Positions 6,269 through 63,708 of a stretch of DNA of 64,000 nt are shown in pieces; positions within the stretch are counted from its first letter, which is position 1; each line of letters begins with the position of its first letter. The stretch is taken from assembly GCA_044892525.1 (NCBI GenBank), contig CM097885.1, positions 17,610,001 to 17,674,000 on the forward strand. The letters are read 5' to 3'. Source of the DNA: Schmidtea polychroa (Eukaryota). Made by a program: the position numbers and the translations under genes. The notes below the pieces were generated by a model. That model searched no databases. It saw only the letters and a program-made list of their open reading frames with translations, and was not told the origin of the DNA.

Positions 6269-6328
<60 letters not shown>

Positions 6329-7545: not shown

Positions 7546-7603
<58 letters not shown>

Positions 7604-7614
7604 ATTGGTAAAGA

Positions 7615-7666
<52 letters not shown>

Positions 7667-28917: not shown

Positions 28918-31215
28918 TTGAAATATCAAAACTTTTGTAATAGTCAATATCATAATGACTGCGATGATATAATGGAAAGATATTATAGTCATAAATATAA
29001 CGGTGTCACCTACATCCTATGCCCTAAATGTGAGGTTATTGAAGTTATAACGTATAAGGAATTTTTTAATAAGCATAGACTCCATCTCCAACAATTTAAA
29101 CCTTCTAAGAAATCTCTTTTCTATAGCTTATATAAATCGTTTGTTAACAATAATAATATCAACAACAATAATAATACTAACAACACCAATAATAATAATG
29201 ATATAAACGAAATAAATAATCTAAAAGATCAAGTAAATAAATTAAATGATCAAATGAATAATCTAATTAATATGAATAAAAGAAAAAATAATGAAAAAAT
29301 AAATTTAATACCAATTAAAAATCTAAAGTTATTGATGTAATCACAATAAGTGATGATGATGTAATAATCAACATAAGTGATGATGAAATTGTTAATAATA
29401 ATAGTAGTAGTAATATTTATTATAATAATGGTATTAATAATAATTATAATAATATTAATCAAATAGGTTATGGTGTCGTAGATGTCACCAGTGATTTAAA
29501 TAATAATCATATTATATTAAAAATGGACGTTTCGTCTTTAGATTTAAAAACGGTCTCTGTACCAGACATTTTAATAAATAAATTAAATTTATATGTAAAT
29601 AAATTAAAATCATGTAAAATTCAATTTTGTCTAAAGGTGGAATTTATAAAAGATGATGAGTTACAATCTTTTGTAATCTCGAATTCCGCCCGAGTTTGGA
29701 GATATACATTCATTGACGAAGGTATTGCTCGTTTAAATGAAAAAATAATTAAAATTAATGAGAAAGGTAGTAATTGGACTATCAATAAAATCGAATACAT
29801 AAGCTTTGTTCTGACTAAATTTGCTGAAATAAGTCGTTTAAGTGGTAGAAGCTTTATTGAAACCCCAAAATCTTTAAGAAACTTAAGCTGTCTCATTAAT
29901 GCAGTTAATAATGACCAATTCTGCTTTTTGTATAGTTTCTTGTCAATTATTAAATATGACAGTATAAATAGGCAATATAGAAATCGCCCTAATTCCTACA
30001 ATCTTTCTGATATTAAATTTGATTCTAATGATATGCCGATGAAACTATCAAATATAAGTAAATTTGAACAACAAAATCCAGGTTATAGTATTAATGTTCT
30101 TACTTACAACGAAAAGGCTTTGATAGACATTTCCGATGAAGATGCAGTTATGAAACATCCCTTTATTGATATAATATACAGGAGTAAGATAGTAGGAGCC
30201 ATACCTATCAATTTATTATTAATTGAAAAGAATGATAATTATCATTATCTTGGAATCACAGACCTAAATAGATTCCTTAATTGTAGGAATAGTTCAATCA
30301 CTCCTGTTAGGATTTGTAGTCAGTGGTGCCCTAGGTGTTTAAACGGGTTTAGGAATGATGACGCTTTTAATAGACATAAGGGTCTTTGTGATAAAAATCA
30401 GCTTGGTACTACCTTGTACACATTGCCTAAAAATAAATATTTAGAATTTACTGACTGGAGTAAAACAGTTACTCCTCCGTTTGTTATTTACGCCGAATTT
30501 GAGGCTATCTTACCTAAAGACACTCTCTATTTTCAACGTCATCTACCTATTTCTGCCGGTATACTTTTTATTAATAATTTTACGGGAGTAAAAATTTATA
30601 AGTCGTTTACCGGTTTAGATTGTGTCGATCAATTTCTTACTGAAATTGAAATGATAGGGAAATATATTGTAACTCCTTATTATTATAAAAATTATCAAAA
30701 GAAAATGATAATTACAGATGAACAACAATTAATGTTTGAAAACAGTACATCCTGTTATTTGTGCAATAAGCCTTTAGTTAGTCCAGTTAGGGACCATGAT
30801 CATTTTACCGGTCTATATCTTAGTGCCGCTTGTACAACTTGTAATCTGTCGAGGCAAATTAGACATATCCTTCCTGTAGTATTTCATAATTTAAAGGGTT
30901 ATGATCTGCATCATATCTTGAAATTTGGCCTTTCAAAATACCATTCATGGAATATTAGTTGTATTCCTTTAACCAGCGATAAATTCCTTAGTCTTTTTGC
31001 TAGGATTGACTCATTAACTGTTAAATTTATAGACTCATCAATTTGTCAGCGAGTCTTTGAATAATGCTGTCAAAACTTCATCATCTTTACCCTTGACCGA
31101 ATCAGAATTTCAGGGTACAATAATAACTGCAAAGGGAATTTTTCCTTATGATGCCGCAACTTCATTAGAGGTTTTGCATAACACTCATCAGTTACCTCCT
31201 ATTTGGAAAGATGTG
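28918..31215 (+). pseudogene. Protein-primed DNA polymerase B, 5' part (outer Polinton; frameshifted)
   Basis: VRDHDHFTG, FHNLKGYD, KFIDS and KGIFPYD motifs. The 29523 ORF is open upstream to at least 29331 and probably joins the 28918 ORF via a frameshift. Confidence 0.9.
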
Positions 31216-31523
31216 AGTAGTGTGTATCTATCCCTAACGACCACAAGCCTCCCAGCTGTTTTCATGTTTTATACCTATTTTTTTCCCGTTTTATACCTAT
31301 TTTTCCCCCATAAACGTAAAAAAAAAACACTTAAAACCTTAAAAACCTATATCTTTTAATTTCTTTATTCCGAAGACATTTTGCTTTCAAAATAAAAACT
31401 TAAAAAACAACAAAAATATTAAAAAAACAACACAAAATGTTAATAAAACAGGGAAAAAAATACTGATAAAACTATGAAAAACGTTTGTCGGCTTGCGGTC
31501 GTTAGGGATAGATACACACTACT
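31216..31523. repeat. Left TIR of inner Polinton (itself bounded by inverted repeats)
   Basis: Starts AGTAGTGTGTATCTATCCCTAACGACC and ends GGTCGTTAGGGATAGATACACACTACT. Confidence 0.92.
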
Positions 31524-31680
31524 TGCAGGTCGCCAGTTTATCAAGTCGCCAGTTTATCAAGTCGCCAGTTTATCAAGTCGATAGTTTGTCAAGTCAATGA
31601 TGCAATCGCTGCGGTCTTGGCAAGTCGACAGCTTGGTAAGTCGACAGCTTGGCAGGTCGATAGCTTGGCAAGCTGCTAGA
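31524..31680 (+). repeat. 16 bp tandem repeats next to the left TIR
   Basis: (AAGTCGCCAGTTTATC)n followed by (AAGTCGACAGCTTGGC)-like units. Confidence 0.85.
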
Positions 31681-31833
31681 ATATAAATATAAAAAAAATA
31701 AAAAAAAAATAAAAATAAAAATAAAAAAATAAAAAAAATAAAAATAAAAAAAAATAAAAATAAAAATAAAAATAAATATATAAAAATTTAAAATTTAAAA
31801 ACAACGTATCCAGTAAAAAAATTTTTTCTAAAA

Positions 31834-34800
31834 ATGAATTGTAATATTTGCAATAAAGTTTTTAAAAATAAAACAGGATTAATTTCTCACTATAAATCGA
31901 AAGCTCACTTACTAAAAGAAAATAATCTTAATGACACAAATTCAAAAGTTTGTACTAAATGTAAAGGAAGATTTCTACATTCTGGATATAATAAACATTT
32001 TGAAAATTGTATCGGGAAAAATAGAGAAATATTTACATGTCCTCATTGTAACTTTTCAACAAAACTAAATTTCTATTATTTAAGACATTTAAAAGAATGT
32101 AAAAATAAAAAACAAAATTCTGACGTTGAAGAATGTCATTCAGAAGGAGAACCTGATCATGTTGAAAGAGAAAAATACAACTGGGATGATTTTAATCATA
32201 TAGATGAATTTCAATTAAAAATTAATGGACCTGCAACCCCTGGAGAATATATAAGGAGAAATAAAAAAAATATTAAAAATTCTTTCACTGAAGCTTTAAA
32301 AAATTATAAACCAACAAGGTATAATGTTATAAAATATAAAATTACAATCAAAGCAAAATATTGGAGAGGACCAGAAGAAAAGACAACTCCTTTAGATGTT
32401 GAAATTGGAATACCTTTTAAATATTTATTTTCAACTAGAGGATTTAATAAAAGCATCAAAGAAATAATTCAAGCAGTAGAAGCAAAACAAGAAGAGGTTG
32501 AAAATGAATTAGGAGATTCAAACTTAGTATTCAACTCTTTCCAAACTTTAGTGATTGATTATTGGAGAGGATTACCACCTAATCCTAAATCTTATATTCA
32601 AACACCCTTTAGATCTAGGGTTGTTATAAATGTACAGAATAAGGATAACAAATGTTTCATGTGGTCAATACTTGCATATTTACATCCTCAAGCTGAAAAC
32701 CCTCAAAGAGTTTCAAAATACAAACAATATGAAAATGAATTAATATTTCCCAAGGGATTCACACACCCAATGAAACTAGAAGACATTCCAGAATTTGAAA
32801 AACTAAATAATCTTAAACTTAATATTTATGAACATGTTAAAGGATGGGGACATGGAAGGAAAGATATTATTCCAATTTATATTTCTGATAGTGATAGCAC
32901 GAGGGAGATATATCTTTTAATCTTGGAAGAAGGAAATAATCAACATTATGTTTTAATAAAAGACTTTCAAGCTTTTACATCACCAGAGAATCCAACTAGT
33001 GGAGGAGGAACATGTAAAAGATGTCTTCATTATTCAACAACTAAAAACTCTATGATTAAACATGCAAGATTTTGTGAAAAAGATGATCCAGCTTTAATTA
33101 GAATGCCTACAGATCCCAGGATGTATTTTAAAAACTTTACAAATTTATTACAAACATTAGGAGTTGTCTATGGAGACTTTGAATCTATAAATCGTAAACA
33201 AGATATAATTATGCAATATTTAAAAATAATAGAAAAATATAAACTCATGGATGAATGGAAAGCCTCTAAACAGAAGATGAAACCAGAGAGGATGAAAGCC
33301 TTTCTAAGAAAAAGAAATAAACCTAATAGTGTTAAAAAAACTAAACAATTACCATCTGCTTATAAATTATTATTTAAAAGTAATTATAGAATCTAGAGAA
33401 TATGCATTTCAAGGAACTTCAGAAGATGTTTTAAATCATTTTACTAAAAGTATAAATGATCTAGAACATGAAATATTTAAAATATTAAAAACAAAGTATC
33501 CTCAAAAAATTTCTAATCAACAACAACAAGAATATGAAAATACTTCCAACTGTTGGATGTGTAAACAAGACATTCTTCCTGATGATAAAGTTATAGATCA
33601 CGATCATTTAAAAAAGGAAAATAATTATCGAGGAGCAGCCCATAGAAATTGTAATCTTAATTGTCATACTCCTAAATTTGTACCAGTTATATTTCATAAT
33701 CTTTTTGGTTATGACATACATCTATTTATTAAACATTTAGCAGAAAATGCTAAAAACTCTTTCAAAGTTATAGGACTTACAAAGGAAAAATATAAATCAG
33801 TTGAATATGGAAAATTAAAATTTATAGACTCGTTAAACTTTCTCAAATGTCTCTAGATGGAATAGCTAAAACAATGAAAGCAGAAAATTTTAAAATCACT
33901 CGAGAATTCTTGGAAAAAAATAATATCCCCCAGAAGAATATCCTACATGCTTAGCAAAAGGAATATATCCCTATGACTATGTTGATTCATTTGAAAAATA
34001 TAATGAAACAAAATTACCAGAGAAAGAAGATTTCTATTCCCAACTTCAAAAATCTCATATTACAAATCAAGAATATTCTCGAGCAAATAAAATGTGGGAT
34101 CTTTTCAACTGTAAAACTTTAGGAGAATATACAAGTATGTACTTATCCCTAGATGTTTATATTCTAGCAGATTGCTTTGAAGAATTTACAAAGTCTTTTG
34201 TTCTTAAACCTTATAATTATATAACAGCTCCTTCTTTAGCTTGGGATACTATGTTATATACCATTTGGACTTCAGATCTTCCAGAATCTGATAAAATTAT
34301 AGATCTTTTAACCGACCAAGATATGTTTAATCAAATTAAAACAAACATTAGAGGAGGAGTATCTTCAGTAATGGGGAATAGAGAAATAAAAGCTAGAAAT
34401 GCAATAACTACTAGCCGAAGAATCTCTAAACACCCTGATCCATATATAAAACTTAACAATGAGGAACTAAAAGAAGTATTAGAAGGAATGAAAAATCCTC
34501 TATTTATACTTTATATAGATGCAACAGCTTTATATTCAGGAATTATGACTCAATATTTACCAATGAGTGACTTTCAAGAAATATACTCCTCTGAAGGACT
34601 TCCAGAAATAGAATGCCCTCCAGAAGAATATTTAAAGACTCTTATGAATGAAATACTTTCAACTCCTAAAGATTCTCCAATAGGATACTTTGTAGAATGT
34701 GACCTCGACTACCCAGATGATATAAAATCAGGAACAAGACATTTCCCTTTAGCTCCTATAAGAAGAAAGATTGATATCAACGAACTTTCACTCTGGCAAA

Positions 34801-36158
34801 TCTCACAAGATAAACCTCCAACAATGAAACTTCTTTGTGATCAAACAGATCGAACTTATTATCTTTGTCACTATAGACTCCTCCAGTTTTATCTTTCACA
34901 AGGAATGATATTAAAAAAAGTTCATAGTGTCATAAGATTTAAACAAGCAGCATTCATGAAGACTTTCATCGAGGAGAACATTCGTTGTCGAAACATTGCA
35001 AAAAGAGAAGGTAACCTTTTAAAAGACAATAATTATAAACTTTTAAACAATTCAGTCTTTGGGAAGACAATGGAGAATGTTGATAAATATACTCATATTG
35101 AACTCCTAACAAATACCCCGAAAGATATAGCCCGTTATAATCGTATGCTAGGAAAGCCTACATTTAAAAATGCAGAAGTATTTTCTGAAAATCTTACTGC
35201 AGTAGAACTACAGAATTTTGAGAAAACATATAATAAACCAATATTTATCGGCTTTGCAATTTTAGAACTTTCAAAATTACAAATGTATGAAACATATTAT
35301 AACATCTTACAACCTATATATGGATCGAATATAGCAATGCATGCAATGGATACAGATTCAATGTTTTTAACAATAAGAACTCACGATTTACAAAGTGATA
35401 TCTCTGAAAATCCTATACTTTCAAATTTAATAAATTCATCTGGAGAATTATTTTCGTTTAAAGATGAAAAACCTTTTACTCCTATAGAAAATGGAATATT
35501 TATTCGTGCTAAACAATATTCATATGAAACATTTACAAATCCTAAATTTGAAGAACATTCATTTATATTTAAAACCCCAGAAACAGAAGAAAGCATTACA
35601 CATAGATATCCTATATTCCCTAAAGGACCTGACGGACAGGGAGAAAAACCTGTAAAGGATAACAGATGTAAAGGAATTCAGAGATGTGTAGCAAAGAATC
35701 TTTCTCATCAAGATTATATAGATACATTGAATCCAAATCATAAAGATAAAATTGATGAAATACATCAACTTAAAAGTGAAAAGCATGATATTTACTTGAT
35801 AGAATCCCAAAAAGTATCATTATCAAATTATGATGACAAAAGATTCATACTAAGTGATTTAAAGACAACTCTTCCTATAGGAAATAATTTAATACCGATA
35901 ATAAAAAATCTTGATAGATTGAATCAGTTATATGGTACAAAGATTACTGATCTTGATATTTATAATGTTGAAATCATTTATCCTGAGAGAATTGAGAAAC
36001 CTTTATATTCTCAAGTTTTTAATCCTATATGTTTAGAACTTAAATATTTTAATACTGATCCTGAATATATAAAAGGTCTAAGTGATAAAGAATTTAAAGA
36101 TCATAAAGAGGTTCTAAAAACTAATTTCGAAAAGTTAACATCAGATTCTATCAAATGA
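31834..36158 (+). pseudogene. Protein-primed DNA polymerase B with N-terminal C2H2 zinc fingers (inner Polinton; frameshifts near 33390, 33850, 33940)
   Basis: VYGDFE, IDHDH, FHNLFGYD, YIDATALY, KLLNNSVFGKTMEN, MDTDS and DDKR motifs spread over three ORFs. Confidence 0.93.
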
Positions 36159-36232
36159 TTTTTTTCTTTTAAAAATGTCAACAATTAATTTAAGAGTGAC
36201 AACATCAACCTTTTGAAGGGCAATAAATTTTT

Positions 36233-36853
36233 TTATGTATGATTCTTTAGCCACTTCTTTCGTTTAATTTTTTTAGAATATTCATTACTTATAACATTAG
36301 CACTTTTTAATCTTATAACCTCATTTTTAATATCTTGTATTATTTGATTTGATTTCATTATTTCTTCGTCTGTTAGGATTCCATCTTCCAAAGCTTTTAA
36401 TTGAAATAAAAATAATTTAGAGATTCCTAATTCTATTGATAAACAAACTTCTCTATATAAACTTTTCTTTTTAGAAGTATAAGATAATGAAACTATTTCA
36501 GTTAAGAAACCATCAGCTACAGAAATACTTCCAAGTATTACAGGTGCAAGAGTAACAACTGGTAAAGTTATGGGTAAAATAACTGTTAATATTGCAGATG
36601 CAAATCCTAAAGAATAACCTATAACTTTTAAAACTGTATTCCCTTTATTCCATCTATTTTTAATTTTTTTATAATGCTTTAATAAATCTTGTAAATGTAA
36701 GGTTTCTGATTTAAATTCTTTTACTCTCATAATTTCAAGTTCTGTGGGAGCCGAGGCCTTGGAACCTTTGTGACCTTCGGAATAATATCTTGATGACAAT
36801 TCTGGGTAAATTTTTTCTTCTCTTACTTCTTCCATCTTTTGGACTTTGTCCAT
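36233..36853 (-). CDS. Predicted two-TM membrane protein (inner Polinton)
   Basis: 206 aa with two adjacent hydrophobic segments flanked by helical regions. Confidence 0.7.
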   Translation of the reverse strand: MDKVQKMEEVREEKIYPELSSRYYSEGHKGSKASAPTELEIMRVKEFKSETLHLQDLLKHYKKIKNRWNKGNTVLKVIGYSLGFASAILTVILPITLPVVTLAPVILGSISVADGFLTEIVSLSYTSKKKSLYREVCLSIELGISKLFLFQLKALEDGILTDEEIMKSNQIIQDIKNEVIRLKSANVISNEYSKKIKRKKWLKNHT

Positions 36854-36861
36854 TTTAATAA

Positions 36862-37866
36862 TTAAAAAAATAAGACTTTATTCTTCTGAGCACCATCTGG
36901 TACCAATACTCGGATATCAAAAGAAACTCTTGTTGAGAGAATATCTTTATACAATTCTCTCAATGCTTTACGAACTTCATCAACATCAACCTTTTTTTCA
37001 TAAAATATTAAATCTATATATTGTACAAGTGTGCTTTTAAAAATAATATTCTTACTTTTAACTTTATGTAGTCCATGTGAATGAGTATTAACATACCAAT
37101 CTCCGTGTGGTAAATCATAACTAGTCATTATAACATCACCCTTTTCAAGCTTACTATTATAATCACATTTCACAAACCATTTCATTCTTTCATTATCATC
37201 ATCAAACAAAAAGAAATAAGGATCAATAATCTTTACAACCATAAAAACACCCCATTCTTTACTGTTTGTTGTTATTAAACTTGGTTCTATAAAATGTTTA
37301 TATGTATGGGGTAATAATGTTTTATTCTGTTCTAATTCAGCAGCTCTTTTTCTAATACTATGTGTGGTGTTAATGTGTGTTCCATGAGACTTTAAATTTG
37401 AAATTCTTTTATTAAATGATGTAATCATCTCATTTATTATATTATATATTGTATTAAATTTAGTATTCATAATTTGTTTATCTTTAGAATTTAATATGCT
37501 AGTATTTAACTTTACAACTTGTTCAGTTAACAGACTTTGTAACTTGTCAAATTTATCATTAAATCGTTGTTCGATATTATTAAGCTTTGATTCCATTGAA
37601 TCAATTTTTGTTGTTAATGAACTTTCAATTCTTGTTGTTGTTAAATCAGTATATTTTTTAACACCATCTACATATTTCTTATTAACTGCATCGAGATTAT
37701 CAACTGGAAAAGATAAATCTTTTATCTTGTGTGCATTCATACTTAAATCACTCTTCATTGAATCACCTCTTTCATTAATATATTTATTTTCTGTTAAAGT
37801 TAATATGTCTTCTGTATCAACCCCAATTGTTCCTCCACCTTTATTACATGGAATATAAGAACTCAT
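36862..37866 (-). CDS. Putative fibre/adhesin-like protein
   Basis: GDSMKSDLSMNAHKIKDLSFPVDNLDAVNKKYVD resembles a YadA/tail-fibre neck motif. It is followed by a coiled coil and a C-terminal globular domain. Confidence 0.65.
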   Translation of the reverse strand: MSSYIPCNKGGGTIGVDTEDILTLTENKYINERGDSMKSDLSMNAHKIKDLSFPVDNLDAVNKKYVDGVKKYTDLTTTRIESSLTTKIDSMESKLNNIEQRFNDKFDKLQSLLTEQVVKLNTSILNSKDKQIMNTKFNTIYNIINEMITSFNKRISNLKSHGTHINTTHSIRKRAAELEQNKTLLPHTYKHFIEPSLITTNSKEWGVFMVVKIIDPYFFLFDDDNERMKWFVKCDYNSKLEKGDVIMTSYDLPHGDWYVNTHSHGLHKVKSKNIIFKSTLVQYIDLIFYEKKVDVDEVRKALRELYKDILSTRVSFDIRVLVPDGAQKNKVLFF

Positions 37867-37970
37867 TTATTAGGGGATTAAAATACTTAAGAATTCCTCT
37901 CCCCCTTTGTACACTTCGTTAGTCCTTCTCCGCCTTCTCCCTTTTAGTCCTTCTCCCCCTTGTGACTTCC

Positions 37971-38726
37971 TCAGACCTGTTTCAAATGTAAATACATTGA
38001 AATCTCTTCTCCATTAAAATCAATCAATTCTCCTTCTTGATTAAGAATTTTAAAATTAATATCCATTATATATTTTCTACATAAAGGTAAATAATTTGGA
38101 GGATTCATTCTTTCAACTATTTTATATCCCATAGGAACTGTGTTTGAGGGAAAGGAATATAAAACATTTGTTTGTTTACCATTATTATAAGAACCAGTTA
38201 TACAATCGCAATGAATATTTATTGTGTTTGTATTTATTATTTTTATAATATTTTCTGATGTAACTACAGGTGTGATATAATGGTTTCGTGTAAATCCTAA
38301 AATTGTTCTAAAGAAACTATTATTTTGAAAATGAATTCCTATATTCTCTAAAGTCATTATACATTTTGAAGTTGGTAAATCCATTTTAATTTTAATGACT
38401 CCATTTGTTTTTTTAGAAAGTATATTATTTAAATCTTTTATCTCATAAGCTCCGGGTTCGATTGTTATTATAATCTTATCTGTAGATTTTGGGCTTATAT
38501 AATAAAATATGTTATTATCTTTAGTTATATTAAAAATAGTATTATAAGCACAAAACCATAATAGTCCTAATTCATAATTTAAATTTTGATCTAATTTAAT
38601 TTAATCTTGAAAGTTTATAGTAAAGTCTGATTCTTTTGAATTTATAGATAAAGTTCTTGAATATTTATCTGACATTATGTTTACCATTTTTTTTAAATTA
38701 TCTTCCGGAAGGTTGCGAAGCTCCAT
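37971..38726 (-). pseudogene. Minor capsid (penton-like) protein with one in-frame stop at 38601-38603
   Basis: INIHCDCITGSY.NG...VLYSF...GYKIVE and NQEGELIDFNGE..LHLK. The frame continues upstream to the ATG at 38726. Confidence 0.87.
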
Positions 38727-38728
38727 TT

Positions 38729-39160
38729 TCATAGTATAGATTTTAAATCATTATAAATTTCTTGGATTAAGGAAGTGAAACCTTCTCCTTTGGATTTATT
38801 CAATCTATACAAAACATATAAGCTTAAAATACCACATATTTTAGTATTATTAGGTTGAACTTGTAAAGAATTAAAAGTGTAGTCCGAGAGATAGTCTTCA
38901 ACTTCTTTAGTGGGTTTAATCCCAAAAGAATCAAAGTATATAGATTTATTATATATACAAACCCAATGAGATCCTTTTTCATTTGAATTTTGATAATTTA
39001 TAATGATATTCTTTGGAGTGTCTTCTTTCAGACTCGACAATTCATCATTCATTAATATTTTTATTTTTAAATTTAAATAATCTGCATAATCTTTTAAATC
39101 AAAATTTGTTTTTGTATTTATTCCAAATGTTTTTAAAAAATCTAATATTGAAGGAGTCAT
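38729..39160 (-). CDS. Adenain-like cysteine protease
   Basis: GSHWVC, YFDSFG and Q...ICG. Confidence 0.93.
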   Translation of the reverse strand: MTPSILDFLKTFGINTKTNFDLKDYADYLNLKIKILMNDELSSLKEDTPKNIIINYQNSNEKGSHWVCIYNKSIYFDSFGIKPTKEVEDYLSDYTFNSLQVQPNNTKICGILSLYVLYRLNKSKGEGFTSLIQEIYNDLKSIL

Positions 39161-39182
39161 TTTATATTTTATAACTTTGTAT

Positions 39183-39980
39183 TTATAACTTCGTATACTT
39201 ATTAAATTTATCTTTTGAAATTATTCCTTGTTTTAATAATTCTTTAGAAATCTTTAAAATATCAGAATCTAAATTATTATGTCCTGCTTTTTTAGCTGCT
39301 AATAGTTTTCTTAATTCAATAAAAAGATTGATTGGGTTTATCTCCTTACCCTTTCCCTGGCCCTGACCCTGGCCCTCTCCTTCTGTGACAATATAACCCC
39401 TTTCATTTTTATTTAAATATTTCTTTAAATCTTGAATATGTTTTGCTTTAGCACTACCATGTACTAATTCTATTAAATTTAAATATTTTTTAATTTCTAG
39501 AAGATCAACATTCTCTGAGGGATATCCACAAACTAATCCATAAAAATCATCTGTAAATTCAAAATCTAGGTGTTTAGTATTATAAACATTTTGTGAATGA
39601 ATACGTGATTTATTTTCTGAATTTAAATATAACAGAAAGTCATGTTTATTAATTGTTATTATTTGATATCCTTCAACATTAATATTAAATGTAGGTTTAA
39701 TTGTTTTACTTAAACTCACATTAATTTTAGGATCAAGTATAAGAGGTTTTATATTTAAATCTCCCAACCATGGTAATTCTTTTAAATCTTGTTTATCTTC
39801 CAACTCTTTAAATTTTAAAACTTCTAACTCTTTTATGGCTTTAATTGTTGGTCCTTGTTGTTGTTGGATTACCTCATTTAATATTATAGATTCAGCGTGT
39901 TGAGTTGTATCTTTTTTATTATATTTATCTTGTTCTGATTGTAATTTTTTTAAAAGTGCTAATCTTTCTTCATATACCAT
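39183..39980 (-). CDS. Polinton conserved hypothetical protein
   Basis: Contains GEG/GQG/GKG repeats. The C-terminal LLAAKKAGHNN...ELLKQGII is recalled as a motif of Polinton accessory proteins. Confidence 0.7.
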   Translation of the reverse strand: MVYEERLALLKKLQSEQDKYNKKDTTQHAESIILNEVIQQQQGPTIKAIKELEVLKFKELEDKQDLKELPWLGDLNIKPLILDPKINVSLSKTIKPTFNINVEGYQIITINKHDFLLYLNSENKSRIHSQNVYNTKHLDFEFTDDFYGLVCGYPSENVDLLEIKKYLNLIELVHGSAKAKHIQDLKKYLNKNERGYIVTEGEGQGQGQGKGKEINPINLFIELRKLLAAKKAGHNNLDSDILKISKELLKQGIISKDKFNKYTKL

Positions 39981-40002
39981 TTTAATGGTATTAAAAATGG
40001 TA

Positions 40003-40605
40003 TCATTTTGGTAAAGGATCCGTTGGAAAGGATTTCAAGTATAAACCTTTACCATTTTTAATTTTACAAAGACATCCATTCTTTAAAGATTTACATATTT
40101 TTTTAAAATCATCTTTATCTTTTGAAGATAAAGATTCAGATGATGAAATTTGATTTTTTAAAAAATCATTTAAACCACGGCCTTTATAAGGATCAAGATA
40201 GAGACCCCTTCCCTGAGACTTTTGCAGACTCCCCTCATATGGATTAAGATAGAGACCCTTTCCAACGGACACTCCCCCTTTAGCTTGATCCTTCTTCATT
40301 GAATCGATTTCAGTTTGTAGTTTTTCTTTTTCTAGGTCTGTCTTTTGAGATTCTTTAGCTTTTTGAACTGTAGTTGCAATTCCTCCAGCTATTCCAGCAG
40401 CACCTGATAGTCCGGCAATGATTGCAGGTATTAAAGCAGCTAATGGAAGAATGCCACCTTCTTTAGCTTCGTGGAGCTTCGCTCTAACTTGTTCTTTTAC
40501 ATGTTTTCCAATAAAATATTTTTTACCAGAGATTACTACTGATTTATTCTTGTCTGAATTTATTAATTCTTGCAAAAATTCCTCTGTAGGGTTTTGTGTT
40601 GTCAT
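40003..40605 (-). CDS. Putative protease-processed, membrane-active core protein
   Basis: KEGG-ILPLAALIPAIIAGLSGAAGIAGGIA amphipathic segment and repeated G(K/R)GL(YL) motifs. Confidence 0.72.
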   Translation of the reverse strand: MTTQNPTEEFLQELINSDKNKSVVISGKKYFIGKHVKEQVRAKLHEAKEGGILPLAALIPAIIAGLSGAAGIAGGIATTVQKAKESQKTDLEKEKLQTEIDSMKKDQAKGGVSVGKGLYLNPYEGSLQKSQGRGLYLDPYKGRGLNDFLKNQISSSESLSSKDKDDFKKICKSLKNGCLCKIKNGKGLYLKSFPTDPLPK

Positions 40606-40620
40606 TTTATAATAAATAAA

Positions 40621-41400
40621 ATGGATATTTGGAAACCAATTTTAAATAGACATAAGAGTAAATTTAATAATAAAGTATTTCCTGATAATTTTAGATGCTT
40701 AATTATTGGATCTTCTGGATGTGGAAAGAATGTTCTTCTTTTGAGGATGTTATTAGAAGATGGTTTTTTAGATTATAATAATTTAATCTTTTATTCTACA
40801 ACCATTAACCAACCAGAATTACAACTTTTGAAATGTGGATTTGAAAATAAATTAACTAAAAAAGCTATAATTGATATTTTTAAAAATCAACATACATATC
40901 CCGAAGAGGTTTTTCATCCTTGTGATATGGTTGATTGGTACAAGGAAAAGATTTTAGAATCAGATATTAGTAATAAAAATGATTATATAGGGGATGGAAT
41001 CCAGATCTTATTCTCTAATAAACCTGAAGATGTTTTACATTGTGATTTACTTCCTAAAGATAAAAAGAATCTAGTTATATTTGATGATGTTGTTAACATG
41101 AAAAATCAAGAGATTCAAAAGAGTTACTTTACACGAGGTAGACATAATAATTGTAATGTTATTTATATATCTCAAACATATTATGCTTTAGATAAAAACT
41201 CTATAAGAAATAATTCTAATTGTTTTATATTTTTTAAATTAGACAAGCGTGATAAGAATATGATTTATAATGATTTATTTTCAAATGTTGAACCTGATAA
41301 GAATATGTTTGATATGTTTGTTGATAATCATTGGAAAGAAAAATATAATTATATTTATTTGGATAGAGAAGAAGCTGAAATGTGGAAAAGTTTATTTTAG
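40621..41400 (+). CDS. FtsK/A32-like packaging ATPase (inner Polinton)
   Basis: Walker A GSSGCGKN, Walker B LVIFDD, FTRGRH and YISQ...IRNN. Confidence 0.93.
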   Translation: MDIWKPILNRHKSKFNNKVFPDNFRCLIIGSSGCGKNVLLLRMLLEDGFLDYNNLIFYSTTINQPELQLLKCGFENKLTKKAIIDIFKNQHTYPEEVFHPCDMVDWYKEKILESDISNKNDYIGDGIQILFSNKPEDVLHCDLLPKDKKNLVIFDDVVNMKNQEIQKSYFTRGRHNNCNVIYISQTYYALDKNSIRNNSNCFIFFKLDKRDKNMIYNDLFSNVEPDKNMFDMFVDNHWKEKYNYIYLDREEAEMWKSLF

Positions 41401-41411
41401 GGCTTGTCGAC

Positions 41412-42800
41412 TTAAAAATCTGTTTTCTGTAACTCATTATTATAAAATCTACCTAATATTTTTTCATTATTTAAATCGATGATACCATATGTTATTGGAG
41501 TTGTATGATGTATTTTATTTATAATAAAAATTTCATTTGTCCATTTTGCTGTGAATCCTTTTTCAAATTTATTTTTATATTTAAATATTCTTACGCGGTC
41601 ACCAATTTTAAATTTTGGTTTTATAGGGGTTGTATCAACAATAACATCATTTTCAATATTTACCACTTTAATGGTTTCAGGCTTCATGGAAGCATTTAAG
41701 GGTGTTGATTTTATAGAACTATGTACATCATTATTATATTCATTTACAATCTTTTGTAACAATTCATTATTCCATTTTTGTTTTCCAATAGCAGTAAAAT
41801 ATTTCCACATTTTATATTTTAATGTTCTATTTAATCTTTCAACTACGACTGCTTTTCCTTCGTTTTCTGTTGAATATAATTTAATATCATTTTCATTTAA
41901 AAACTTTGTAAAAACTTTGTTATAAAATTCTGTTCCTTTATCACACCATAAATATTTTGGAATTCTTTGATATTCTTCAAATATATTTTCAAATGCTTCT
42001 GTAATTGAATATCCTGTTTTATTTTCTAAACACCTTGCAAAAGCAAATCTTGTATATAAATCTATTACTGTTAAAATTATTTTATATTTTTCAGGGTCTG
42101 ATGATTTGGGCATAAAGACTAAATCAGCAGACCATGTTTGATCTTTTTCATGTACTTGAACTTTTAAATATTTTTTATTTTTTCTAAATTCATGGTGTAA
42201 TTCGTTGGCATATTTTATTTCTGATTCTGTTGGGTTTTGTAAGGGTTTATTCTCAAAGAGTTGATTCTCAAGGGATCTTTCAACGTCTGCTTGTTCAATA
42301 ATCCTTTTATTAGCAACATCTTTTGCTTTTCTAGGAAGTCCTGCTCCTATGAAAATCTTACCTTTCATTGCTAATTTAACTAGAGCTCTTTGAATCTTTT
42401 CTTGGGTTGATGGGTTTTGTATATTATTTAAATCATGTATTAAATTCACATCAGCAACATGTCTATCTCTAAGATCTTCTGAATTGTAAGCAATATCATG
42501 TTTTAAAGCTGCTTGGTCGATTCTATTTATTGGTTCTTCTCCTTGTTTAGGATTATTATTTTCATCTAATCTAATATCTAATCTTGTTCCTGGCCCAGTA
42601 TAATTGTGTTTAAATAAATGTCTTTTACCTGGATATTTTTCTGTAGTAAAAGGTTTTAATATTGAAGATGTTGTTTTTGAAGATTGTAGATCACCTCCTG
42701 TAATATCAACTCTCGTATGTTTTTTAGTTTTGAGATGACTTGCTTTGTGATGTCTTGTAACTTGACAATTACAACTTTCACATGTCCAATATTTACTCAT
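41412..42800 (-). CDS. Zinc finger + parvovirus-type PLA2 domain + retroviral-type integrase fusion
   Basis: NYTGPG...PINRIDQAALKHDIAY is the PLA2 motif. WSADL, WCDKGTEF and VERLNRTLK give an intact DDE triad. Confidence 0.92.
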   Translation of the reverse strand: MSKYWTCESCNCQVTRHHKASHLKTKKHTRVDITGGDLQSSKTTSSILKPFTTEKYPGKRHLFKHNYTGPGTRLDIRLDENNNPKQGEEPINRIDQAALKHDIAYNSEDLRDRHVADVNLIHDLNNIQNPSTQEKIQRALVKLAMKGKIFIGAGLPRKAKDVANKRIIEQADVERSLENQLFENKPLQNPTESEIKYANELHHEFRKNKKYLKVQVHEKDQTWSADLVFMPKSSDPEKYKIILTVIDLYTRFAFARCLENKTGYSITEAFENIFEEYQRIPKYLWCDKGTEFYNKVFTKFLNENDIKLYSTENEGKAVVVERLNRTLKYKMWKYFTAIGKQKWNNELLQKIVNEYNNDVHSSIKSTPLNASMKPETIKVVNIENDVIVDTTPIKPKFKIGDRVRIFKYKNKFEKGFTAKWTNEIFIINKIHHTTPITYGIIDLNNEKILGRFYNNELQKTDF

Positions 42801-42829
42801 TTTAAAAGTTTTTTTATGGGGGAATCTAC

Positions 42830-44125
42830 TTATGAAGAATCTCCCCTAACATTTTCAATAATTGAAATCTTTCCACCATATAATTTCATTTCTATTTTCT
42901 TTTCTTCTAATATTAATGTATATACTTTAGCTTTAAAATTAGAATCCTTTGTTATATGAAGTGTAACATCAACATTATTTATAGCTAGGCGATCATCTTG
43001 GTCTGATACATTTATACAAAATATAGAATATAAATTTTTGAAATCTTCTAAACTTAATTGCGGTTCAACTTTGAAATCATAACATGTTTCAATATAATTT
43101 AGATATGGGAATATGTTTTCATTATTTTCAATATTAAATTCCATTCTATTTATTGGATAATAAGAACTATTTAATTGAATTTGGATTGTTTTTAAATTAT
43201 CATCTCCAATCTTTTGAATAAATAGATTGTTATTTTTTTGGAAAGATGAATCTACTTCTTTGAATCCAATCAAGATATATCTTGGTCGGTATGCTAAATT
43301 TGCCACCTTTATAGAATATGTTGAACCCTCTGTCATACTAAATTCACTACAGATTCTATTTAAATAATTTACATTTATAGACTTGTTGGAATTTAATCTT
43401 TCAAGGAGTTTGATTTCAGAATGTGGGTTTAATGTCCATTCAGGTATATGCAATTCAAGTGTTGATAATTTTAATTTAGCTGTTGTGTCTGCAGCTCCAT
43501 AGAACAATCTTTTATCACCTTCTACTCTATTACAGATGAGTTCTATAAAAACATTATGAAGTACACGGTTATAATTTTGAAGGAATCCAAATAAGTGTTT
43601 TAATTCAAAATAACCTTCAAATTTTTTCAACTTAAAAAGTTCAACTCTTTTATAGTAAGCATAATTTATATCTAAACCATCTTTATCTAAATCCCCTTTA
43701 TTAACATCAGGAATCCAACCTGTTAATTCACCATATTCGTTTTTATAATCACAACCAGTTAAAATAAAATTTAACATTGTAGAATATACTCCTGGATGCA
43801 AAACAGTTTCAATTTCTGATGATCCTAGTTTTAATCTCATGTTGGAGAATAAATTTGGAAAGAAATTATTTTCTAGGGTTATATCTTTGTTTGCTTCAAT
43901 TTCGAATTCAATTTTATAATATAATTTGGCATTACAAATATCTATTGGGTTTGATGTTTGAAGAGATTGAAAAACTATATCACCCCTACGATTTAAGTTT
44001 GCAATAGATCCTGAAGTTGGCGAGATTTTTAAAATATCATTTTTCTTGATTTCATGAGTAAATTCTTTATTATAATCAAGATTTAATTTATTTTTTTCTT
44101 GAATTTTAAGATTTATATTATTCAT
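42830..44125 (-). CDS. Major capsid protein (double jelly-roll, inner Polinton)
   Basis: 431 aa with RPRYILIGF, IQLNSSYYP and YSIFCINVSDQ. Size and position also fit. Confidence 0.88.
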   Translation of the reverse strand: MNNINLKIQEKNKLNLDYNKEFTHEIKKNDILKISPTSGSIANLNRRGDIVFQSLQTSNPIDICNAKLYYKIEFEIEANKDITLENNFFPNLFSNMRLKLGSSEIETVLHPGVYSTMLNFILTGCDYKNEYGELTGWIPDVNKGDLDKDGLDINYAYYKRVELFKLKKFEGYFELKHLFGFLQNYNRVLHNVFIELICNRVEGDKRLFYGAADTTAKLKLSTLELHIPEWTLNPHSEIKLLERLNSNKSINVNYLNRICSEFSMTEGSTYSIKVANLAYRPRYILIGFKEVDSSFQKNNNLFIQKIGDDNLKTIQIQLNSSYYPINRMEFNIENNENIFPYLNYIETCYDFKVEPQLSLEDFKNLYSIFCINVSDQDDRLAINNVDVTLHITKDSNFKAKVYTLILEEKKIEMKLYGGKISIIENVRGDSS

Positions 44126-44161
44126 TTATATAATAAAAATTTAAAAAATGATAAAAATCCG

Positions 44162-44244
44162 AACTCCGATAGCGCAGTGGGCTAGACTGGCACAGTGGTT
44201 CAAATGGATAGCGGTTCAAATCCTAACTACGGTTAGTTTTTTTT
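44162..44244 (+). ncRNA. Putative Pol III small RNA, copy 1
   Basis: A boxes TAGCGCAGTGG and TGGCACAGTGG, B box GGTTCAAATCC and a T8 terminator. Confidence 0.6.
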
Positions 44245-44394
44245 AACATAAAATAATATTAAAAATTTGAAAATAATATTGAAAATGGTGTGGGTATCTT
44301 AGATTTATATTTTATTTTATTTATTTTTATTTTATTTTATTTATTTTATTTTATTTTTTTATTAATTAAAAATTTAAAAAATGATAAAAATCCG

Positions 44395-44477
44395 AACTCC
44401 GATAGCGCAGTGGGAATAGACTGGCACAGTGGTTCAAATGCTAGCGGTTCAAATCACGTCTGAGGTTAGTTTTTTTT
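44395..44477 (+). ncRNA. Putative Pol III small RNA, copy 2
   Basis: Diverged tandem copy (~233 bp unit) with the same A boxes, GGTTCAAATCA and a T8 terminator. Confidence 0.55.
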
Positions 44478-45100
44478 CAACATAAAATAATATTAAAAAT
44501 TTGAAAATAATATTGAAAATAATTTTTGAAAATAAATATTAAAAAAATATATAGTGTGGGTATCTTAGGAAATAAATCTTGTTTATTTTATTTATTTATT
44601 AATTAATTAATTTTTAAACATAAATATGAAAAAAAAAATATTGAAACGGGTGTGGTGGCGAACCGGTAATTATCGCCACCAGTCTTTCGAACACCCCCGG
44701 ATCGATTCTATAATGTGCACATTTATTTCTTGGTTGTTTTCGGACCTCTTTCGGATTCGCTTTCGAATTCATTTGTACTTTCGAGCAGCACACTTAAAAC
44801 GCCGATGAAATCGACTTCGTGAGCGAGAAGCGAATAATAAGGTGTGCTGCTATTATCGAATTGATTCTGATATATGAGTCTGGCCAGCTTGTATATTGGA
44901 AGAGATTTGATAAACGAAAGAGGTTGAAATAAAAAAAAAATGATCCGGATCAAAAAAAACTGTTGAGAGGACAGTGAAAAAAAAATACCACTGTCCTCCC
45001 AGAGCAGTTTTACTATTTTCATAAAATTTTTTATTCTTCAAGATTAAGATTTATAAAATTATAAATTAGTCAAATAGCAACTTGCTAGTTGACATCCTCA

Positions 45101-45366
45101 AGTAGTGTGTTTATATCCCTAACGACCGCAAGCCGACAAACGTTTTTCATAGTTTTATCAGTATTTTTTTCCCCGTTTTATTAATATTTTTGTTGTTTTT
45201 TTTAAGTCTTTATTTTGAAACCAAAATGTCTTCAGAATAAAGAAATTAAAAGATATAGGTTTTTAGGGGTTTTAAGTGTTTTTTTTTACGTTTATGGGGG
45301 AAAAATAGGTATAAAACATGAAAACAGTGGGAGGCTTGTGGTCGTTAGGGATATAAACACACTACT
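45101..45366. repeat. Right TIR of inner Polinton (itself bounded by inverted repeats)
   Basis: Starts AGTAGTGTGTTTATATCCCTAACGACC and ends GGTCGTTAGGGATATAAACACACTACT. Confidence 0.92.
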
Positions 45367-46720
45367 GATGTGACTCCCGCTGAATATGAGACAGCTCAGA
45401 GAATTTGGCTTGAAACTTCATGTACTTCACTTTTTGATTACATGATGGCTTATTTAAAACTTGATGTTTTCCTTTTAGCCGATTTTTTCCAGCAATTTAG
45501 AGCTAAGTCCATTGCTCATAACCGACTAGAGCCATTAGATTTCTTAGGTATTCCAGGTATGTCTTGGAATTCAGCCTTATTAACTTTAAACTCTCCAATT
45601 GAGCTCCTCACCGATATGGAGATGTATAACTTTTTCGAGGGCGGTATCCGTGGCGGACTAACTTTTGTAAATAAACACTATGTAAAAACAGACCCGGATA
45701 CTGCTTTGCTTTACATAGATATAAATAATTTATACGGTTGGGCTTTAAGTCAACCATTATCTTGCAGTGACTTTGAATGGGTTACTGATGATAATTTATT
45801 AAATAATATAATTGTTGAATGCACAACGGTAGATTTAGATCTGCTTAATTATGGTTATACCATAGAAGTATTATATTAACACAAATACGGCGTTACGAGC
45901 AGCGTCGGCAAATAAACTTGATAAAAGTTTTTATAGATTATTAAACAACAGTCTTTACGGCAAGACTGTTGAAAATCTTAAAAAACGTATTAATTTACGT
46001 CTGTGTAATTCTTCACAGAAATTATTAACATTCTGTTCGAAACCGACTTTTTGTAAATCCACGAAAATCGATGATGACTTGATTTCGGTTTTATTGAGGA
46101 AGGACACAGTGTGTTTGAATAGACCTAGTTACATTGGTCAAACTGTACTAGATTTATCCAAACTCAGGATGTACGAGCTGCAGTATGAAGAGTTGCAAAA
46201 ATATCTCGACGAATTCAACTGCGAAATTAATATCGTTGCTGGGGACACAGATTCCTTCTTCTTGGAAATTAAACATTGTAGTCTTGACATTCTTTTACCT
46301 GCGATGATTAGAGATCAATTATTAGATACTTCGAAATATGACCCAAATCATCTTTTATATAATAGGAACCTTGATTCTGTCATTGGTAAATTCAAAGACG
46401 AGAATAAAGGGTTATTATATAAAGATTGGGTGTTCTTGAGATCTAAATGTTACAGATTGATGGGTGATGAGGAAAGTATGAAGGCTAAGGGGATAAGTAT
46501 GAAAGATACTGGACTCACACATCAGTCGTATCTAGATTGTTATTTAAACGATAAAATATACACAGTCCCTCAGTTTAGAATAACATCAAAAAAATCACCA
46601 ACTTTTTAGTATTAAAAATAATAAAAGAACCTTGGCATGTAGAAATGATAAGCGAAATTAGGTGGATAAAAATCAAAGTTTGGCATATGGCCATTATAGG
46701 GGCGGTGACACCGATATATT
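45367..46720 (+). pseudogene. pPolB 3' part (outer Polinton; deletion and frameshifts)
   Basis: YLKLDVFLLAD, GIRGG, YIDINNLYG, LLNNSLYGKTVEN, AGDTDS and YGHY. It rejoins the 5' part in frame as PIWKDV-TPAEY. Confidence 0.92.
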
Positions 46721-55801: not shown

Positions 55802-58800
55802 TAATAATAATAATTTTGATAATAACATCTTTGTTCTAGTGGAGTCCTGAGTCATCGTTCTAATCGTGTGGGTTAGTCTTTGTCTTAAAAATATATGATT
55901 GGTCTTTGTTCAAAAAAGTCATCGATGAGTCATACAAATGGGGGGGCTAGTGCACAATAAATAATAACTCCTTATTTAAACTATGAGTCGTCGATGAGTC
56001 TTTGTCTATATGTCTTTGTTTAAATGTATTTATTTCAATATTTGTTTACATGTCTTTGTTTAAAAAATGATGAGTCATATGTACTTTAATAATAAGTCAT
56101 TGGCTTTGTTCCAAAATGATGAGTCATATGACCTTGACATGGTTGCCATGGTTACCACAGTTGCTATGGATGAGTCATCGGGGGAAATCAGGAAAAAAAA
56201 TCGAAAAAAAATCGAAAAAAAAATCGGAAAAAAAAATCAATAAAAAAAAATCGAAAAAAAATGTGTCATTGGGGGAGGGGGGTATGATGAGTCATGGAGC
56301 ACACTTCCCTCTACTCAAGACCAAAGTTGGAAAATGCTTCAAAGAAATGTTGAAAAGATGAAGAAATTTCTTAAAGAAGGGGATGTGAGGTGTTTTCAGC
56401 TGAGAGTTAAATATTTCAATGATTTATCAAAATAATTTTAAATTGTAAATAATTGACTATTTAAATAACTTTTAAATAATTTTTAAATTGGATTTTTTAA
56501 GTTGAAATATTTGAATTAAAAATTAAAATAGCTTTTTAAAAAGAAGTTTTATTAATGAAAATTTTTTAAATAAATATGTTTTAAATATTGAAGTATTTTG
56601 ATAAATGATTTTGAAAAACTTTTATTCAACGCTGAAAATTTGTTTAAAATTAAACAATATGTGATATAATAAATATTTGGAATTATGTCGTTCACTTTTG
56701 AACCGGATTTAAAAAATAATTTAGAAGATGTGTTAGCAGCTTCTAATACTTTCGATCAAGCTACCACTTACATAGTGATTAAAACGGGTCTTACGATATT
56801 TTTTATGTTAATAAAAGTTGGATAATATTTTTTTGGTTGTATTTAGTTAATCTTTTTAGACATTATTTTTTTATTGTATATTTTTCAACACACATTCACC
56901 CCAGCTGCCCCAAGACAGTTCATTTACTGGTGACTCGGCTGGGCTCTTCAATTCTCCCCACACACACACACACACAAGCACCTAAAATACACAAATATAA
57001 TATACACGTATAAACTATTAAACTTTATAACAGATATAACAAATATTGTAATTTAAATGAATTTACTTGTTTATCAGATGTTATAATTAGTTATCAGTCT
57101 CTTTTGATAATTTTATGATAATTATTTTTAATGTAGATTGATGACATTGATAATTGTAATGAATTTATACTGAATATTTGGAATATTTTGAGTAATCAGT
57201 CAATCAATTTGAGTACATGTATTACTTTTAAAAAAATAATTAAAATTAATTTATTTCAATTAATTTATTCAATTTAAATCAATTATCTACTTGATCTTAT
57301 TTCAAAATTCTTATTAATTTATTATCTTAGTTGATGATTCATATTAACTTGAATGATTAGTATTTTTATTTACTAGATGATTAATGACTAGAATTTAAAG
57401 TTATTTGTTGTCCATTAATTACATTTTTATGATATTTATTTATTATGTTTTGAATAATTTAAATTGTAATTAAAAATATTTTTGAACACAAATTAAAAAT
57501 AAATTTAAAAAGTATTTGATAAAATATTTAGTTGATTGTAAGAGGTTAGTACTTGGTATCTGGTACCTAATCGGTTGCTTGTTGTTGGTTGTTAGTATAT
57601 ATTACCTATTTGTAGGTATTTAGTACTTATTTGTTAACGCCTAGCAAAAAATATTTAGTAGCTGGAAGTTGGTATCAGATATTAGGTAATATAAAAATTT
57701 CCATTAAAAATTATCTTAAAAAAATCTACATTTAAAATGAACTTAAAAAAATATTCCATAAAGATTAAAAATCTATTAAAAATTTGCTTTGAAAAATATT
57801 TCATTAAAATTTTCATTAAAAATTACATTTCTCAAAGGAGTTATTCAATCTTTTTTTAATAAATTAAAAAAATATTACTTTGATTTATTTATTACATTAC
57901 TCTAATTTTCTTATTTAAAAATTATTACTTTAATTTACTTTTATTTACTTTTATTTTTAAATTTTTACTTTAATTTACATAAATTAAAAATATTACTTTA
58001 ACTTTAAAATGTTAGACCATTGATTACTTAATTTTAAAAATTAACTATTAATTTACCTATTTATCTTAATTAACTGAGCCATTATTTACTTTAATTCAAT
58101 TTTTAGACCCTTAATTTAATTTAATTTAAATTAATTACCTTAAATTACTTATTTGAACTCATTGATTACTTTAATTTAAAATTTGAATCTTAATTTACTT
58201 ATTTGAGCACATTGATTACTTTAATTCATTGAGTACTGTAATTCAAAAATTTAACATGCTTTTTTAGTGAAGACACACTTTTTGTATGGAAATTCCCAGG
58301 ACCAAGGAGACCCTCTTTAATTGTACTTGGAAAAATCCTTGCTTTTTTAGTGTAGACCCCCTTTTTTGTATTTTTATCGATAATTGAAATTTGTATTGAA
58401 AATCCCAAGACAAAGGACACCCACCCAAATAATACTGGCTTATCCTTGGATTTTTAGTGAAGACCACTTTTTTCTATTGAAAAAATCCTGAGACCTTAAA
58501 TTAGCATGCTTTTTTAGTGTAGACCACCTATTTGTTTTGAAAACCCCAGGACCAAGAAGACCCACCTTAATTTATTTGGAAAATCAATGCTTTTTTATTG
58601 ATAGTCGGATTTTGTATTGAAAATCCCAGGGCCAAGGAGACCCTCACTATAGTCAGAAAAATTTTGGCCTTTTTTCTATAGGTCCTTCTATTTGTATTGA
58701 AAAAATATGTACAGCACTCTACAGCAATTGCGTAATCTACAAATCAGAAAAAATTACTGCAGCAGATCCCCTTCCCGGGGACCCCCTCGGAAGGTCGTGC

Positions 58801-60109
58801 TGCAGAGGGCTCCTAACTACCCTACTATATCTCTATTCATATTGGCTCTATATATTAATCAAATGAGTTTATTTAAACAAATATTCATAGTTGCCGCAAT
58901 AACAGTATACATTTGAACAAAGATTGGATATCTCCATTCAAAACTACTATAGGAATTGAAAGTCCCATGAAAACATGTAAATTTTACGATGCACTGTCAT
59001 AAATAGAAGCGTTGAAAATATTTCAAAGTCCGTCGGACATACCCGAATTTCAGCTTTATCGATTGTTTTTACCTAATCTTAATTCCTGGGAGAACCAAGA
59101 GAATTTTCGAGATATTTATTAAAGAATCCTCTTAATTGAATCAAGGCGCAACATTTTTGTTAAGGATGTCTCAAAATGTTCCAAAAATTATTCCTTAAAA
59201 ACGCGAAATTTATACCGAAAAGAAATTTTAATCTGTGTCGACAAATAACAAGTCTTTTTCATGGACCATGTCGGGGTGAAATCTTAAAATCTAAGAAAAG
59301 CACCTCTGACTATAGTCAGAAATAGCACTTTTAGTCATAATTTCCACTTTTCACTTTTATCACTTAAACATCAATAATGGCACTTTTTAATCAATATACA
59401 CTTAAAAAATTGTACGCGCGATAACTCATCGATCAAACTCGCAATAAATCATCAATCAAAATGGGGGGTATATATGCGCGATAACTTATACTGATTCATG
59501 GGACTCACATCTATCTACTTGATTCGTTCAGAGGAGTTTTGCTTTTATAGACTGCACTTGTCCGACACTTTTTCATTCCTGTCTCTCCATAATTTGTACA
59601 GCTCCAGTGTTAACACTGACAGTTTGGCACTCAGAATAATTTGTCATTTTTTCCATTTCAGGATCTGACATTTTCCATACTTTTTTTCTATTTCCCACTT
59701 TATCTCTGAAAGTTTGTAGATGCCGATTTTGTTTTCGTTTCTGCATCATTTTCATTGCAGTTGGGTTTTTATCTGACGTCACCAATCTTTAATATTTTTT
59801 TCGATTAAAAAGTATCCTTCAATATTTTCTATTGGATAATGCGTATTAGTCATAATGCGTAAAAATAGTGCAATTAATAAATATAAATGCATCTGAAAGG
59901 TTTTATAAAGGTGCAATTAATATATTGATAAGCAATTAAGCTCTTCACTAAGCATTGCATTTTGTTGTATTAGAAAATGATCTAAATAGTTACCGTTGTC
60001 ATGCTTGGAATCGTATATATCTGCAAAGTCTAATAGTGCGCATCACGGCCAACGCCAACTTTATAAAAACCACAGTAAGCCATCAGTGATGCAAAACAAA
60101 ACTTTATAA

Positions 60110-62310: not shown

Positions 62311-62370
<60 letters not shown>

Positions 62371-62400
62371 CAGTAAACCCCCCCCCTGCGTACGCGCATG
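61103..62400 (-). mobile_element. Deleted hAT transposon (duplicate copy)
   Basis: Same sequence as 5061-6358. Confidence 0.9.
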
Positions 62401-63587: not shown

Positions 63588-63645
<58 letters not shown>

Positions 63646-63656
63646 ATTGGTAAAGA

Positions 63657-63708
<52 letters not shown>

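Follow-up and report, generated by a model that had tools for sequence, protein, structure and literature searches.

Adenoviruses are related to Polintons, and Polintons have so far been described almost solely by their proteins. The relationship is also set out in the literature on these elements (PMC8502044). Pol III RNAs are already known in adenoviruses (PMC7589676) and in gammaherpesviruses (PMC4337559). The adenoviral VA RNAs are about 160 nt long and consist of a terminal stem, a GGGU-ACCC central domain and an apical stem (PMC7589676). The vtRNAs of MHV68 are similar to each other in sequence and structure, carry 3′ miRNA hairpins and are expressed; a single vtRNA partly restores the phenotype, and a cis effect of the promoter is left open by the authors (PMC4337559). 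In yeast, the barrier function of tRNA genes requires the A and B boxes (PMC7990762). Intact tRNA genes have been reported in polinton-like viruses, virophages and MELD viruses, where they were read as codon compensation (PMC12220804, PMC8502044). A literature search at the level of titles and the first lines of abstracts found no degenerate Pol III cassettes in the ends of animal Polintons; the ncRNA calls in polinton-like viruses in supplementary tables S11 and S12 of PMC12220804 were outside its scope.

The stretch of DNA analysed here (the window, 64,000 nt) comes from the AT-rich, 781-Mb genome of Schmidtea polychroa. It contains an element of 14.15 kb (Table 1) in which Pfam recognises pPolB, an A32 ATPase, an integrase with a PLA2-like domain and a DJR (double-jelly-roll) capsid. 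Together with the terminal inverted repeats and the 6-bp target duplication, these genes identify it as a Polinton/Maverick. One class of adintoviruses typically carries PLA2-like genes (PMC8502044).

Table 1 Features of the Polinton and of its right-end module (window coordinates)
Feature	Position	Strand	Details
Polinton/Maverick (adintovirus-like)	31216..45366	.	AGTAGT...ACTACT ends; 6-bp target duplication GATGTG at 31210-31215 and 45367-45372
Left terminal inverted repeat	31216..31525	+	Box scan of the window: no A/B-box unit at the left end of this copy
Right terminal inverted repeat	45101..45366	-	
Major capsid protein ORF, 431 aa	42830..44125	-	Pfam DJR-like domain, E 3.7e-27; divergent from the units
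Duplicated unit 1 with AT-rich flanks	44112..44286	+	
Duplicated unit 2 with AT-rich flanks	44345..44520	+	
Core 1	44163..44244	+	A box 44170-44180; B box 44213-44223; T8 44237-44244
Inner words of core 1	44188..44207	+	A-like 44188-44198; defective B-like 44197-44207
Core 2	44396..44477	+	A box 44403-44413; inner words 44422-44441; B box 44446-44456; T8 44470-44477
Structured-RNA candidate, ~375 nt	44645..45020	+	A-box-like 44656-44666; B-box-like 44699-44708; internal T4 44737-44740
3′ part of the candidate	~44956..45019	+	Terminal hairpin ~44956-45011; T4 runs 45008-45011 and 45016-45019

Each terminal repeat contains an inverted internal copy of the first 46 bases of the element (45101-45146 with 45321-45366), and these copies could make the element end a large hairpin. 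The left subterminal region (31526-31680) contains a 16-bp unit that is directly repeated three times and followed by degenerate copies; these short repeats occupy the place of the putative Pol III module in other copies of the element. The Polinton is nested in an older one, of which an ORF1-like piece (23% identity) lies to the left at 29523-31064 and pPolB pieces (28-31% identity) lie to the right at 45403-46609; comparable nesting was seen at loci L023, L026 and L107. The window also includes a segmental tandem duplication (1-7958 with 56043-64000, period 56,042 bp; L006), and the whole Polinton end is repeated at 100% identity in the duplicate. A second Polinton family has a TBP-like ORF in the window on the minus strand (15504-15968, Pfam TBP, E 7.8e-13) beside its ATPase (16077-16715). 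A 145-aa ORF, apparently the same one, adjoins the ATPase in L092, L095, L096, L099, L100 and L102; a Polinton-borne homologue of the TATA-binding protein is noteworthy. Elsewhere in the window duplicated proteasome-subunit ORFs flank a ubiquitin-DUF1759 fusion ORF (8932-9489, 10805-12529 and 12804-13391, minus strand).

The capsid start codon at 44125 lies immediately before unit 1 and in the opposite orientation. The ~233 bp duplication proposed at this place by the original prediction is present, with an offset of 233-234 bp, and its other simple features were found as well: GC-richer cores (45% GC vs 9% in the spacer), a T8 stop in each, and a location upstream of the capsid gene of a Polinton, the units adjoining the DJR capsid ORF and pointing away from it. 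A-box-like words start at 44170 and 44188 in core 1 and at 44403 and 44422 in core 2, and GGTTCAAAT words start at 44197 and 44213 in core 1 and at 44431 and 44446 in core 2. The doubling of both boxes that had been claimed is therefore real at the level of words, each occurring twice per core, but they do not amount to two functional pairs. A2 and B1 overlap, the last C of the B box consensus GTTCRANNC is replaced by G in B1, and only A1 to B2 has tRNA-gene spacing. This distance is 43 nt in both cores and 42-44 nt in the capsid-selected copies described below; a spacing of 43 nt matches that of tRNA genes. The inner boxes A2 and B1 are dispensable duplications. The layout of the cores, with intragenic boxes A and B, is that of a type-2 Pol III gene, and the transcript of core 1 would be 75-85 nt long. 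The combined pattern of A box, B box and T4 occurs twice in the window and in none of 30 locally shuffled windows.

The distribution of the units was followed in two samples. The first, chosen independently of the unit, consisted of 40 copies taken from a list of 97 found by their capsid protein. A unit was present in 39 of these 40, once in 30 and twice in 9, and the single copy that has none is interrupted directly after the capsid start. The tandem pair that had been described is thus present here but is a minority state, as 30 of the 39 unit-bearing copies have one unit. The second sample was drawn with an 18-base core motif, which has 1,345 exact matches in the genome vs 0 for a control; the first 40 of 100 listed matches were inspected. 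All 40 are in Polinton ends, left or right, and all are oriented outwards. The neighbouring gene is the capsid gene for 28 of them, ORF1, at the other end of the element, for 9 and the integrase for 1; the remaining 2 are in terminal fragments. The best 20 genome matches were likewise all in copies of this Polinton, two of them being the window and its segmental duplicate. Between the capsid gene and the end, members of the family have one to three short units and the long candidate of Table 1, and in some members the short units include further types. The units are thus Polinton-borne, and their presence in the capsid-selected copies excludes the outcome that the original prediction had named as its refutation, a dispersed host SINE absent from other copies.

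Five left/right pairs of ends were compared. Three have an exact common 6-bp target duplication, a fourth agrees at 5 of 6 positions and one was unreadable, and therefore some elements have units at both ends. The proposal that most copies do was dropped, as only 9 of the 40 matches are at left ends. Units are not essential to Polintons, because the window copy has none at its left end and in the second family no unit was found in the 20 10-kb stretches inspected near 11 integrase matches, a sample that perhaps covers the ends incompletely. Outside the genome, the core motif gave 0 matches in viral contigs and 0 in metagenome contigs, and the capsid protein had no relative in viral contigs.

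ARAGORN found 0 tRNA genes in the window, and a search of 43900-45500 against Rfam gave 8 matches to E 10, none of them on the cores, in agreement with the earlier view that the units do not form a normal tRNA. No cloverleaf was found: the acceptor and T-arm registers were fully paired in 0 of 43 distinct units. The terminal stem that had been proposed for them did not hold up, being intact in 1 of 43 distinct copies, and a unit's own 5′ and 3′ ends pair no better (-4.6 kcal/mol) than swapped ends do (-4.9 kcal/mol). The two cores do not fold better than their shuffles (z -0.09 and +0.70), and over 40 distinct cores the mean z was +0.19.

A sister unit in the same module passes the Rfam tRNA cut-off (32.4 bits vs cut-off 29) and aligns to host tRNA-Cys, the B box of which is the same GGTTCAAATCC. 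The window core itself scored 38.5 against host tRNA-Cys, 37.5 against tRNA-Lys and 35 against tRNA-Arg, the only three isotypes compared. Relaxed ARAGORN calls gave inconsistent isotypes, were also made on flanking DNA, and were set aside. The best reading of the units is that they are probably degenerate tRNA-derived Pol III/TFIIIC cassettes acting in cis. As to the tRNA genes of the host, they occur in long tandem arrays (L061, L084, L193) with periods of 424 bp for Lys, 278 bp for Arg and 281 bp for Cys, and the genome has 1,001 matches to the Cys tRNA pattern.

Within the family, per-site diversity over 43 distinct units is low in B2 (0.013), the T-run (0.006) and A1 (0.040, almost wholly A/G at the purine position), and the variable parts are the 5′ leader (0.327), A2 (0.129), the second linker (0.244) and the trailer (0.171). 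These values are only suggestive, because A1 is matched in invariance by the AT-rich flank 44245-44275 (0.041) and by B1 (0.044). The invariance of core 1 across L001-L020 was set aside, those loci having been picked by that very core. Leaders and trailers are freely recombined among units, and in L052 A1 is lost.

The contrast between unit types is stronger. The window unit and the unit of an old lineage agree at 9/11 positions of the A box and 11/11 of the B box, with an interior identity of 0.34 (shuffled 0.34). The corresponding figures for a tRNA-like unit in L165 are 9/11, 11/11 and 0.36 (shuffled 0.38), and for unit a of L048, where the capsid is 84% identical and the boxes are 39 nt apart around a different middle, they are 11/11, 11/11 and 0.53 (shuffled 0.41; 7 of 200 shuffles as high). 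For the old-lineage and L165 types the box identity is partly ascertainment, because they were first found by a box scan, and these two types may be separate captures of tRNA genes. All three types are without A2 and B1; the T-run and its distance from the B box (11-14 nt) are preserved across types. The A box, B box and T-run thus persist while the interior is at random identity, which suggests that the target of selection is the Pol III promoter and not the RNA fold. Intact A and B boxes, kept over RNA structure, are what a barrier-type element would have, and TFIIIC-bound insulators, which the original prediction had offered as its alternative and which are themselves predicted, are the best fit to this pattern of conservation.

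The old lineage is older and decayed; in 9 of 20 loci its unit is followed by a 68-77% homologue of the window block 44533-45019. In L130 an integrase of 40% identity follows, and no intact element was found in 20 upstream 10-kb stretches. Old-lineage units also occur as inverted head-to-head pairs in small palindromic fragments (L099:6940-7180, L117, L121, L132). L165 has two further tRNA-like units, and in L165 and L153 a coiled-coil-like reading frame of ~70 codons lies between the capsid start and the unit.

The ~375-nt candidate lies between the two units and the right terminal repeat. Its A-like and B-like boxes are separated by 43 nt, and its predicted fold has an energy of -130 kcal/mol, with z -8.5 on the plus strand vs z -5.8 on the minus strand (60 shuffles); its terminal hairpin has z -6.2. 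This is a property of the longer stretch only, as the fragment 44645-44742 alone folds no better than shuffles (z -0.8). Covariation was assessed in 14 copies, 10 hand-picked from 77 of this family and all 4 full-length copies of the old lineage. Of 88 predicted pairs, 11 were altered on both sides, a number reached by 13 of 500 shuffles, and slid controls gave 2-6. This compensatory support is moderate, because most of the changes coincide with a single lineage split, the alignment used for the test had also served to derive the structure, and one of the helices falls in a gapped region. Several A-U/G-U exchanges would favour an RNA of the plus strand over a DNA hairpin. The T4 at 44737 could end Pol III transcription early; at its place T4 is absent in 3 of the 4 old-lineage copies. 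The 375-nt neighbour is a better VA-like candidate than the two cores.

Sequencing runs were searched for transcripts of the locus. Of 24 runs listed, 1 is recorded as RNA, with a small share, and the contigs of four were compared with 43660-44560; these contigs carry no strand or end information, and 44311-44372 was skipped in all runs, for which reasons the cover described here does not count as evidence of expression. In X2, guessed to be RNA, depth was 2,087-3,661 on 44125-44217 and 1,260-1,835 on 44404-44465, and 0-24 over most of the capsid part. In X1, also guessed to be RNA, there is cover on the capsid part and on each core, and depth is 0-15 in 44218-44310; X17, the kind of which is uncertain, also covers this spacer. 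Cover in X2 begins 60-90 nt before the predicted start, and one contig ends in 18 A at 44487, so the pattern fits a Pol II or oligo-dT-primed product equally well. Run X4 was rejected as a source of a relative, its signal being mostly on AT-rich flanks, in short pieces with many mismatches.

Units occur in almost all copies, at left or right ends of the elements, A1, B2 and the T-run persist, and the interior and both stems turn over. To explain this we lean towards the view that the units are fixed parts of the terminal module that act in cis and attract the host's TFIIIC/TFIIIB and Pol III to the element end. A1 and B2, at their distance of 43 nt, would be the binding sites of TFIIIC, and TFIIIB would be loaded on the adjoining AT-rich DNA upstream, the same DNA that precedes the capsid start codon. 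Pol III would then make unstructured RNAs of 75-85 nt, directed outwards and ending in T8. In the weakest step, the stable complex might keep the element end open and serve as a barrier to host silencing spreading from the flank; such a role is suggested by analogy with yeast. The RNA would be largely a by-product, and selection would keep occupancy. The conservation of the T-run speaks against this, since it argues that termination, and hence an RNA of set length, matters, whereas a pure TFIIIC site would not need it.

Alternatively, the short RNAs might work in trans alongside the 375-nt neighbour, much as MHV68 vtRNAs do, as decoys that need no structure and engage La, tRNA-processing or small-RNA loading factors. 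The T-run and its preserved distance from the B box, the hundreds of templates and the grouping of several tRNA-like units at the end, for which MHV68 is a parallel, are on its side; the vtRNAs, however, are alike in sequence and structure (PMC4337559), and the interiors of the Polinton units are neither alike nor folded. We regard action in trans as unlikely.

Less likely again is a neutral reading, in which the units would be what is left of captured tRNA genes, carried along in the terminal region and shuffled as the ends recombine. A copy number of 1 or 2, the free recombination of leaders and trailers, the loss of A1 in L052, a second family without units and the chance that the other unit types are separate captures would all agree with this. 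Conservation of B boxes at 11/11 around interiors of random identity, at the same position of the module, is nevertheless hard to obtain without selection, and the unit was kept in 39 of 40 copies.

PKR is known from vertebrates, which counts against the two cores being true VA-RNA counterparts, that is, folded double-stranded decoys against PKR and Dicer. The resemblance on which this rested is one of intragenic A and B boxes and a T-run, in tandem, in an element related to adenoviruses (PMC8502044). The cores are ~80 nt long vs ~160 nt, half the VA length, lack a terminal, apical or central domain and have no GGGU/ACCC (PMC7589676), and they match no Rfam family and have no stable or conserved fold. 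The VA-RNA reading of the cores put forward in the original prediction is therefore largely refuted on structure, and we consider it very improbable. Host SINE insertions, in spite of the tRNA-type boxes and high copy number, retain almost no probability and are refuted for the matches inspected, a minority of the 1,345, since all 20 best matches and all 40 inspected motif matches lie in Polinton ends and the common sequence continues through both flanks, with no unit-specific tail or target duplication seen.

It is conceivable, though doubtful, that this Polinton clade has a Pol III non-coding RNA module of its own, in which a row of short tRNA-derived units shield and open the end and a 375-nt structured RNA is selected for its fold, as the first counterpart of VA RNA, EBER and TMER in an animal Polinton. 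If true, viral Pol III counter-defence RNAs would be pushed back to transposon-like relatives of adenoviruses. A promoter-only cassette of probable tRNA derivation, kept at the ends of an abundant family, suggests a borrowing of host Pol III machinery against silencing, and the folded 375-nt neighbour provides a direct test case for adenovirus-style Pol III RNAs in Polintons. Such cassettes go unseen in standard tRNA and Rfam scans, and therefore may be widespread and have been missed; the near-identical copies, numbering in the hundreds, should make a ChIP or small-RNA signal easy to pick up.

Of the known systems, the tRNAs of polinton-like viruses, virophages and MELD viruses are comparable as tRNA-derived sequence within Polinton-class elements. 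These are intact Rfam/ARAGORN calls, whereas the cores are invisible to both programs and cannot decode (PMC12220804, PMC8502044). Adenovirus VA RNAI/II share with the cores the intragenic boxes A and B, a T-run terminator (T4 or longer), the tandem pair and a proposed origin from tRNA genes. The cores differ in length (~75-85 nt, measured to the T-run from a point ahead of the A box) and have none of the terminal, central and apical domains of VA RNAs (PMC7589676); the 375-nt neighbour does fold, but its length is more than double that of a VA RNA. The vtRNAs/TMERs of MHV68 are likewise tRNA-like Pol III units that cluster close to an end of the DNA virus genome and do not work as tRNAs, and for them, as for the predicted Polinton units, either the RNA or the promoter may be the active part (PMC4337559). 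They are expressed and have a 5′ tRNA-like fold and miRNA hairpins, whereas the cores, for which transcription is predicted, lack a fold and stop at T8, 14 nt past the B box, with no hairpin tail (PMC4337559); long stems are found in the 375-nt neighbour. The tRNA-gene/TFIIIC barriers, finally, have been described on host chromosomes (yeast HMR and centromeres, and human by citation), and the putative barrier proposed here would be on a mobile element (PMC7990762). In both cases function would depend on the A and B boxes and the assembly of factors on them and not on the RNA, as reported for the barriers and predicted for the Polinton units (PMC7990762).
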